Shown here in pieces: positions 26,719 through 26,739 of a DNA stretch of 42,479 nucleotides. The notes beneath the pieces were generated by a model that had not been told where the DNA came from, did not search any database, and saw only the letters and a list, made by a program, of their open reading frames with translations. Source of the stretch: a virus (lineage: Duplodnaviria > Heunggongvirae > Uroviricota > Caudoviricetes); IMG/VR virus record IMGVR_UViG_2939127364_000002. The stretch is one strand, 5' to 3'. The stretch's first letter is position 1, and every line of letters starts with the position of its first letter. Position numbers and translations under genes: made by a program.

Positions 26719-26739
26719 AACCGCTTCGGCGGTTTTTTT
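26719..26739 (+). terminator. Terminator-like hairpin with UUCG tetraloop before the tape measure gene
   Basis: Stem aaccgc/gcggtt with loop ttcg followed by seven T. Confidence 0.45.

Follow-up and report, generated by a model that had tools for sequence, protein, structure and literature searches.

Why a late operon that is read from a single promoter under antitermination should carry terminator-like hairpins between its structural genes is the question raised by three sites in the prophage DNA analysed here, a stretch of 42,479 nt considered at its full length (IMG/VR record IMGVR_UViG_2939127364_000002, Caudoviricetes; hereafter the window). Site C follows the major capsid gene, site B precedes the major tail gene, and site A separates the tail assembly chaperone gene G-T from the tape measure gene, all three being located on the + strand, between late genes, and in gaps of 39-59 nt. 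A first-pass annotation had taken them for three similar terminator-like hairpins that would act in the absence of Q and might in addition stabilise upstream mRNA and thereby set the ratios of the structural proteins.

The late operon

The window is a lambdoid prophage with a single late operon, which begins at a pR'-like promoter and is predicted to require a Q protein of the lambda type. The late genes reside on the + strand, and their names were confirmed by family searches (Table 1), so that the initial assignment of the capsid, major tail, G-T and tape measure genes was right; for G-T it is further supported by a -1 slippery heptamer, A_AAA_AAG, at 26399-26405, just 5' of the stop codon of G. 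Likewise, the premise of a Q-antiterminated late operon holds, since the window has a gene for Q as well as counterparts of the pR' promoter and the tR' terminator, which show the arrangement of lambda-type Q-antiterminated operons, i.e., Q, a late promoter and a strong terminator close behind.

Two start codons bear on the position of the sites relative to their downstream genes. The major tail gene starts at ATG 25318, where its homologues begin, and not at ATG 25267 as in the list of open reading frames, which would make the gene cross terminator B. For the tape measure gene, whose homologues start with M-A-T-L-R-E-L, the start is probably GTG 26756, located 7 nt after a GGAG motif, in preference to ATG 26750. 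The major tail gene abuts G (TAATG). The tail module is common, with 1,200 out of 5,426 complete genomes of E. coli carrying it. When the window was scanned over its full length with Rfam 15, the sole match was a tRNA at 41400-41471, and none fell into the late region.

Table 1. Coordinates of late-operon genes, promoter and hairpins in the window.
Feature	Position	Strand	Remarks
Antiterminator Q gene, lambda-type	14167..14790	+	PF03589, E = 1.1e-57
pR'-like promoter, then tR'-like terminator	14833..14934	+	TTGACT-17-TAAATT
pR'-like promoter alone	14833-14861	+
tR'-like terminator	14896-14924	+	13-bp stem
Terminator motif after lysis genes	16484..16510	+
Terminator-like hairpin between large terminase and portal genes	20314..20345	+
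Major capsid protein gene	22362..23567	+	phrog_10, E = 5e-102; upstream of site C
Site C, GC-rich stem-loop	23575..23594	+	GGGGCGC-TGAATT-GCGCCCC; 7 nt past capsid stop codon
Small second hairpin	23595..23606	+	CUGU-UCUG-ACAG; from MFE structures; abuts SD (AGGTGA) of 62-aa gene
62-aa gene, downstream of capsid gene	23618-23806	+
Head-tail adaptor, head closure and neck genes	23818-24917	+
Tail terminator (gpU-like) gene	24914..25258	+	phrog_347, phrog_78; upstream of site B
Site B, predicted intrinsic terminator	25279..25305	+	Stem ACCCGCC/GGCGGGT (25279-25295), loop GCT, then T6-A-T4; between tail terminator stop (25258) and major tail ATG (25318)
Major tail protein gene	25318..26022	+	phrog_158, E = 7e-105
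Tail assembly chaperone G	26022-26408	+	G-T as a whole 26022..26710
T frame	26420-26710	+	TGA stop 26708-10
Site A, predicted intrinsic terminator	26719..26739	+	Stem AACCGC (26719-26724)/GCGGTT (26729-34), cUUCGg tetraloop (26725-28), seven T (26733-39)
Tape measure protein gene	26756..29956	+	phrog_339
Terminator-like hairpin between tail genes I and J	32300..32329	+	Homologous to lambda 15462-15483
Terminator after J-like gene, before lom	35843..35870	+
Terminator after Ail/Lom gene (35892-36491)	36518..36546	+	Lambda counterpart 19612-19633

Two predicted terminators and a stem-loop

Judged by their sequence, sites A and B are both canonical Rho-independent terminators on the operon strand, each with the stem and loop of an intrinsic terminator and a U-tract directly 3' of the stem. 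The stem of site B comprises 7 bp, six of them GC, and 23 nt separate its 3' end from the ATG of the major tail gene; its minimal hairpin has a folding energy of -12.0 kcal/mol, none of 200 shuffled sequences folding as well, and its terminator discriminant lies between +38 and +44. The UUCG-tetraloop hairpin with seven T that had been described between G-T and the tape measure gene is indeed found there as site A, 8 nt downstream of the T-frame TGA and 6 nt upstream of the tape measure GGAG. It has a stem of 6 bp with four GC pairs and a minimal hairpin energy of -8.0 kcal/mol (0/200 shuffles fold as well), and its discriminant is marginal (+2 to +12).

Site C exists as well, with a 7-bp stem made up entirely of GC pairs, a 6-nt loop and the stem and loop geometry of a terminator, and its minimal hairpin is the most stable of the three (-15.8 kcal/mol; 0/200 shuffles). 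However, the sequence 3' of the stem (CTGTTCTGAC) has no T-run, the site was absent from the terminator scan that listed A and B, and its discriminant is negative (-13 to -18). Because it lacks a U-tract, site C is a strong hairpin but not a predicted intrinsic terminator, and the notion of three similar structures therefore stands for A and B but not for C. In close relatives, loop and stem-length variants occur at site C, and in a Serratia locus with a capsid protein 83% identical (L085) a different stem, UGCGGGGU-UUCG-GCCCCGCA, takes the same position, again without a U-tract and again with a small hairpin beside the SD of the gene following the capsid gene. Site C is better regarded as a conserved structural element of the RNA, which may act as a barrier to exonucleases, than as a terminator.

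Terminator motifs more frequent than expected by chance

A strict scan (stem without mismatches, six or more T within 8 nt, -7 kcal/mol or better) gave 9 distinct + strand sites in the window as compared to about 1.3 per strand in dinucleotide shuffles, and a looser scan of positions 14000-33999 gave 33 sites where 19.6 +/- 4.1 were expected. The list of three sites is incomplete, further ones being located in the late operon at 16484, 20314, 32300, 35843 and 36518, in addition to tR' at 14896 (Table 1).

All three hairpins are predicted as the fold of the nascent RNA. Their folding z-scores in 46-51 nt windows range only from -1.0 to -2.2, so that folding energy alone is weak evidence, and these modest values are what could be put forward in favour of palindromes without biological meaning. 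Yet the motif is enriched over shuffles, the sites are intergenic and on the operon strand, and terminators are found at the orthologous junctions of relatives, in 23/23 and 18/20 diverse loci, with differing stems and compensatory changes (see below). It is this occurrence at orthologous junctions that settles the matter against a chance origin, which can be considered as already refuted by the comparative data and to which we attach practically no weight.

Conservation across relatives

For a comparison of the sites, 80 close relatives were taken from IMG/VR and a set of 20 diverse loci from a collection of bacterial genomes with one genome per species; HK97, an Stx2 phage and lambda were added. 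The diverse loci come from Phytobacter, Serratia, Symbiopectobacterium, Pectobacterium, Leclercia, Kosakonia, Enterobacter, Superficieibacter, Brenneria, Providencia and Salinicola. All 23 diverse loci have a terminator motif in the 45 nt that precede the major tail gene, and 18 of 20 have one in the 45 nt that precede the tape measure gene, at a background density of the motif in these loci of 4.8e-4 per nt or about 2% per 45 nt.

The stems themselves differ widely between loci, with CCCGCC, CCCGGC, GCCGCC, ACCGCC, AGCUGC and CCACC, among others, at site B, and ACCGC, CCCGC, ACCUGC, CCCACC, CCCCG, CCCUC and CCCCGC, together with varying loops, at site A. At both sites the stem is kept by compensatory changes. 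In an alignment of 16 sequences of site B, 93.8% of the cells are paired and three of the six pairs have a compensatory change, the covariation score being 0.257 versus a shuffle mean of 0.125 (0/500 shuffles reach it; slid controls at most 0.067). For site A, 9 sequences gave compensatory changes in 3/6 pairs and a score of 0.444 versus a shuffle mean of 0.182 (0/500 shuffles; slid controls at most 0.097), with 100% of the cells paired, a percentage that is partly true by construction because this alignment is a gap-free subset with 4-nt loops centred on the hairpin, which excludes HK97 and all hairpins whose loop has 3 or 5 nt. An alignment of all site A sequences with MAFFT and RNAalifold came out of register, with 3 pairs only, since loop and stem lengths vary.

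Taken together, the covariation and the recurrence at the same junctions indicate that A and B, as judged by sequence, are true Rho-independent terminators and that selection maintains them. This selection is long-term, with stems that turn over and a hairpin, T-run and spacing that persist.

Counterparts in HK97, lambda and other phages

A search for distantly related DNA with the G-T/tape measure junction matched phage HK97, with features annotated as terminators lying under the match. In the HK97 record (AF069529), putative terminators are given after the portal gene, after the major head gene (gp5), between gp11 and gene 12, after gene 12, between the moron gene 15 and the tape measure gene H, and before gene I, including annotations at 5192-5213, 6692-6719 and 8398-8422. 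HK97 (AF069529; Juhala et al. 2000) thus has annotated terminators at the same three gene junctions as sites A, B and C, with the same flanking genes on either side. The features are accordingly of a known kind, orthologous to sites annotated in HK97, and as such already known. The first-pass annotation had made no mention of this existing annotation nor of the cargo gene slot at site A that is described in the next section.

The degree of similarity differs between the three junctions. Identity to HK97 amounts to 51% for the tail terminator, 69% for the major tail protein, 64% for T and 90% for the N-terminus of the tape measure protein. The HK97 site before the major tail gene, AACCCGCC-AGAT-GGCGGGTTTTCTTTTTCCAGGAGAC, is clearly homologous to site B, sharing the CCCGCC/GGCGGG stem, the T-run and the CAGGAGAC ribosome binding site. 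The site before H, CCCGC-TATCAA-GCGGG-T8, matches site A in its distance to the start of the tape measure gene and has a related stem (CCCGC/GCGGG versus ACCGC/GCGGT in the window), but HK97 carries the gp15 moron before this terminator where the window has just 8 nt. The capsid genes are only about 25% identical, and the post-capsid site of HK97, GGGCGGG-GAAA-CCCGCCC-TTTT, has a short T4 tail whereas site C has no T-run. Also, HK97 has a terminator after the major tail gene, which in the window abuts G.

In lambda, by contrast, the gap between U and V measures 7 nt and the T and H genes overlap, and there is no hairpin counterpart of site A (T-H) or site B (U-V), so that A and B belong to the HK97-type tail module and not to that of lambda. 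Lambda does have hairpins on both sides of its capsid gene E, one with T7 between D and E (6099-6116) and one with a UUCG loop but no T-run immediately behind E (7163-7180), and an I/J hairpin homologous to window positions 32300-32321. In phage T7, the terminator T-phi after gene 10 is a true terminator for T7 RNA polymerase and follows the most abundantly expressed structural gene. Site C is similar to T-phi in being a strong hairpin after an abundant structural gene, but it has no U-tract, and its operon is read by the host polymerase under Q antitermination.

With regard to small RNAs, late-operon sRNAs were detected in lambda by RIL-seq near pR' only (10.1101/2024.10.31.621285), and Hfq-CLIP in EHEC reported sRNAs at the pR' moron site (PMC4104026); neither report speaks for or against Hfq-binding sRNAs being derived from the hairpins A, B or C.

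Site A as the border of a cargo gene slot

Morons are cargo genes inserted in lambdoid late operons with their own promoter and terminator that are expressed from repressed prophages, and HK97 gp15, a superinfection exclusion protein encoded between the chaperone and tape measure genes, was the first moron to be described (PMC3594210). Comparison of the gap between T and the tape measure gene in 82 loci, i.e., the window, close relatives, HK97 and the Stx2 phage, shows that the stretch from G-T to the tape measure gene is an HK97-type moron slot, empty in the window, with site A as its 3' border. The gap is empty (51-53 nt, with a T-run of 7-9) in 59 loci, namely the window and 58 close relatives. 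In 15 loci it contains an insert of about 450 nt coding for a membrane protein of 110-115 aa with a zinc ribbon (PF13248), in six an insert with a lipoprotein-like gene, and in one (HK97) the gp15 insert, while the remaining locus, Stx2 phage 1717, has a 119-nt gap with no ORF of at least 35 aa.

In the diverse loci, T-tape measure gaps of 407-2657 nt hold cargo on the + strand. The cargo has a G + C content of 0.30-0.46 compared to 0.50-0.54 in its flanks in 13 of the 14 cargo loci examined, the exception being a Salinicola locus (0.55 versus 0.62), and in all 14 the cargo-bearing gap ends at a terminator. Both loci that lack a terminator at the tape measure junction are from Providencia and have a gap of 24-32 nt without cargo. 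The identical hairpin ACCGC-UUCG-GCGGU closes the empty allele as well as the zinc-ribbon cargo (loci L004-L014 and L091-L097), which thus has its own terminator at the 3' end as expected of a moron. In the window itself, 8 nt separate the T stop codon from the hairpin, and neither a cargo ORF nor a promoter is present, so that the extra reading frame of a moron is missing. A scan for consensus promoters upstream of the cargo ORFs of L012 and HK97 found none; independent transcription of the cargo is taken from the literature, which ascribes promoters to morons (PMC3594210).

As the slot is empty in the window, terminator A might here be what is left of the slot or else an insulator in its own right, and with no cargo next to it, it may have little present function. 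That it is nothing but a functionless relic of a lost cargo gene is unlikely, albeit to be taken seriously: 15 close relatives carry the zinc-ribbon gene between T and the very same hairpin, in one of them (L054) in frameshifted form, the cargo-less loci with gaps of 24-32 nt have no terminator at this junction, and the T-run varies in length among the empty alleles. Conversely, the hairpin is intact in all 59 empty alleles, which is weak evidence given that these are close relatives, and the same 14-nt hairpin is found in Leclercia and Enterobacter phages in which the flanking proteins are only 62-73% identical, a persistence that suggests constraint. A further point against a relic is that the left junction of the empty allele falls inside the diverged 3' end of T, which speaks against its origin by a simple deletion in recent times; the empty allele may be either ancestral or derived.

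Cargo adjoins site B in just one of 23 loci, an Enterobacter locus (L095) with a KilA-N gene (PF04383) between the resident terminator B and the major tail gene. This cargo brings a second terminator along, whereby the terminator-then-RBS layout before the major tail gene is restored. Since B is present in 23/23 loci and has cargo beside it in only one, insulation from cargo promoters fails to explain site B.

Possible functions of the terminators

It is established that transcription complexes modified by Q resist terminators (cited in PMC8022706 and PMC7547250). RNA polymerase without this modification, as might arise in the prophage state, from cargo-gene promoters or from spurious starts, would be expected to stop at A and B. 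We propose that the tail genes remain silent when such a polymerase is halted at these sites, and that Q-modified polymerase coming from pR' ignores the terminators, so that the whole operon would be made in lytic growth. After read-through, the hairpins may have a secondary role in the mRNA, where they, and above all C, might shield upstream segments from 3' exonucleases. Intra-operon terminators also occur in the late operons of P22-like phages, where their roles are described as not known in the phage L paper; the two roles suggested there are to lower the amount of downstream mRNA or to stop transcription that lacks antitermination (PMC8022706), and the latter is the one considered here.

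Termination of Q-less transcription with read-through by Q-modified complexes is thus a reasonable prediction for A and B. As a whole, the data are best explained, with a probability of about 0.6, by A and B being terminators that would stop polymerase without Q, by A being in addition the border of the moron slot, and by C being a stem-loop. Against this stands that the stem of site A has only 5-6 bp, with a marginal discriminant.

The function originally put forward, namely that the hairpins adjust structural protein ratios in lytic growth by partial termination and by stabilising mRNA at its 3' side, predicts more capsid and chaperone message than message for the low-copy proteins encoded downstream. 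The positions of two of the sites agree with this, as C lies after the capsid gene and before the low-copy connector genes and A lies after V, G and G-T and before the low-copy tape measure and tip genes, both at steps down in protein abundance as generally known for lambda-like virions. It also fits that capsid genes of unrelated lineages (lambda E, HK97 and the Serratia locus) likewise have a GC-rich hairpin directly behind their stop codon. Partial termination, moreover, is among the possible roles listed for P22-like phages (PMC8022706). Site B, however, does not conform, as it is located directly upstream of the most abundant tail protein, where attenuation would go the wrong way and termination 23 nt before the start codon would cut the product needed most. 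Furthermore, Q-modified complexes resist terminators, C has no U-tract, and lambda builds the same kind of tail without a hairpin at U-V or T-H. Ratio-setting by termination is therefore compatible with A and C but not with B, and we consider it rather improbable as an account of the three sites.

Instead of acting on transcription, the hairpin with its U-rich tract might serve as a translation-context element, which insulates the following ribosome binding site from upstream structure and offers a U-rich standby site or a platform for S1, termination being incidental. This would be consistent with the narrow range of distances from hairpin to start codon, 19-31 nt in major tail leaders and 16-26 nt in tape measure leaders, with the presence of B before a highly expressed gene in every diverse locus, and with the lambda hairpin and T7 directly upstream of capsid gene E. 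Yet the same layout precedes the low-copy tape measure gene, the mean predicted accessibility of the SD does not differ between major tail leaders (0.33) and tape measure leaders (0.38), and any terminator in a gap of 45-65 nt would result in such a spacing; this explanation thus appears very unlikely. A related possibility was examined and rejected, namely that terminator A refolds after read-through to hide the tape measure SD. In the window, CUUCGGCGG can pair with CGUCCGGAG, which is the MFE structure of positions 26712-26775, but this pairing is not conserved, and across loci the predicted SD accessibility is the same for both kinds of leader.

Site B and the major tail gene

There remains the possibility, which we regard as speculative and quite unlikely to be correct, that terminator B is an obligatory, deeply conserved cis-element for the expression of the major tail gene in HK97-type tail modules. 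A processed, hairpin-capped boundary might give the major tail message a stability of its own, and the element might keep the ribosome binding site of the gene open. Pointers in this direction are that B has persisted in all 23 loci between E. coli and Salinicola, over which the identity of the major tail protein falls to only 35%, that it is fixed at 19-31 nt from the start codon, that the spacer before B is depleted in G (5% versus 27% overall), and that cargo adjoins B in only one of these loci. By extension, junctions consisting of a terminator and a ribosome binding site may be preferred landing pads for cargo genes, with each insertion regenerating the layout as in the Enterobacter locus with the KilA-N gene.

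Implications

Taken by itself, this instance changes nothing, as the annotation of terminators within late operons of lambdoid phages goes back to the HK97 genome. Mildly new are the depth of conservation of site B, the split between a cargo-linked site and one present in every locus examined, and the empty-slot status of site A. The comparison separates a terminator that is linked to cargo (A) from one that is found at the tail-gene junction in every locus examined (B), and shows the post-capsid element (C) to be a hairpin without a U-tract in several capsid lineages. The comparative result is therefore modestly useful in that it provides three clean and differently behaved test sites for Term-seq or Q-dependent transcription assays on lambdoid prophages.

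Sequence context and variants of terminator B

Terminator B (25279-25305), which lies between the tail terminator gene (stop codon at 25258) and the major tail gene, is preceded by a short spacer of 17-22 nt counted from that stop codon (25259-25278 in the window, with the same spacer in the relative loci L002-L103). Across the diverse loci this spacer is depleted of G and rich in C, with on average 5% G and 39% C vs 27% and 24% overall, whereas the spacer of the window, with 20% G, does not share this G depletion.

In two close relatives the stem at this site is mutated, in L049 (4953-5003) to the largely broken CCCACC...GTCGGA and in L041 (4953-5003) by one mismatch at the stem base, and both may be decaying prophages. 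In two further IMG/VR relatives the terminator B region in front of the major tail gene is tandemly duplicated, the gap measuring 111 nt in L015 and 93 nt in L016; because there is an N at the joint, the duplication in L016 may be an assembly artefact. In locus L095 a gene coding for a KilA-N domain protein is inserted 3' of the resident terminator (table), and a second terminator, CCCGC-TTCG-GCGGG, is found immediately upstream of the major tail RBS.

The conserved start of the major tail gene is ATG 25318. The ORF list of the window places it at ATG 25267, resulting in a reading frame that runs through terminator B, and the same longer ORF appears in the annotation of public records such as ON470580 and NC_011357.

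The gap between G-T and the tape measure gene

For the tape measure gene, GTG 26756 is the probable start codon, as GGAG is located 7 nt upstream and the homologues start with M-A-T-L-R-E-L, and the ATG 26750 given in the ORF list is the less likely candidate. Terminator A, the hairpin with seven T at 26719-26739, has a competing fold in read-through RNA (26724-26749): its loop together with its 3' arm, CUUCGGCGG, is able to base-pair with CGUCCGGAG, a stretch spanning the tape measure SD. At -11 vs -8 kcal/mol the competing fold is the one of minimum free energy (MFE), and the CUUCGGCGG/CGUCCGGAG pairing is not conserved in relatives.

The same gap is a hot spot for AT-rich cargo on the + strand (26708-26756 in the window; L004-L014, L045, L054, L085-L103). 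Among the cargo are a zinc-ribbon protein with two TMs (110-115 aa, PF13248), several lipoprotein-like ORFs and a TPR protein; it reaches up to 2.6 kb in Salinicola and is frameshifted in the copy of L054. The window itself carries the empty allele.

Mosaicism, prophage end and distribution

The prohead protease gene (21661-22347) also contains a terminator-like motif, located about 330 nt 5' of the capsid gene start (table). Mosaic breakpoints are seen at about 23691 and 24120: phages of the SfI/SfII/SfIV/ST64B type match with 91-96% from the protease gene via the capsid gene and hairpin C (23575-23594) to a point about 25 codons into the 62-aa gene, where the match ends, and in another set of phages the match begins only at 24120.

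The 397-aa ORF and the adjoining tRNA gene (40078-41471) may mark the end of the prophage that holds integrase and attachment site. The tail-gene segment 25200-26800 is matched in 1,200 of the 5,426 complete E. coli genomes, and in 890 of these the match spans 80% or more of the segment. The top identity is only 96.5%, so that the genome from which the window itself derives is absent from this set.

Coordinates of additional features in the window and in L095
Feature	Location	Strand	Remarks
Terminator-like motif AGGCCGGUU-CGUU-AACCGGCCU	22010-22038		-14.8 kcal/mol, tail TTCTATTG
397-aa ORF	40078-41271	-	adjoins tRNA gene
tRNA gene	41400-41471	-	63 bits
Resident terminator AACCCGCTCCGGCGGGTTTTTT	L095 3689-3710		5' of inserted KilA-N gene
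KilA-N domain gene	L095 3843-4373		between resident terminator and major tail gene (region 3689-4500)
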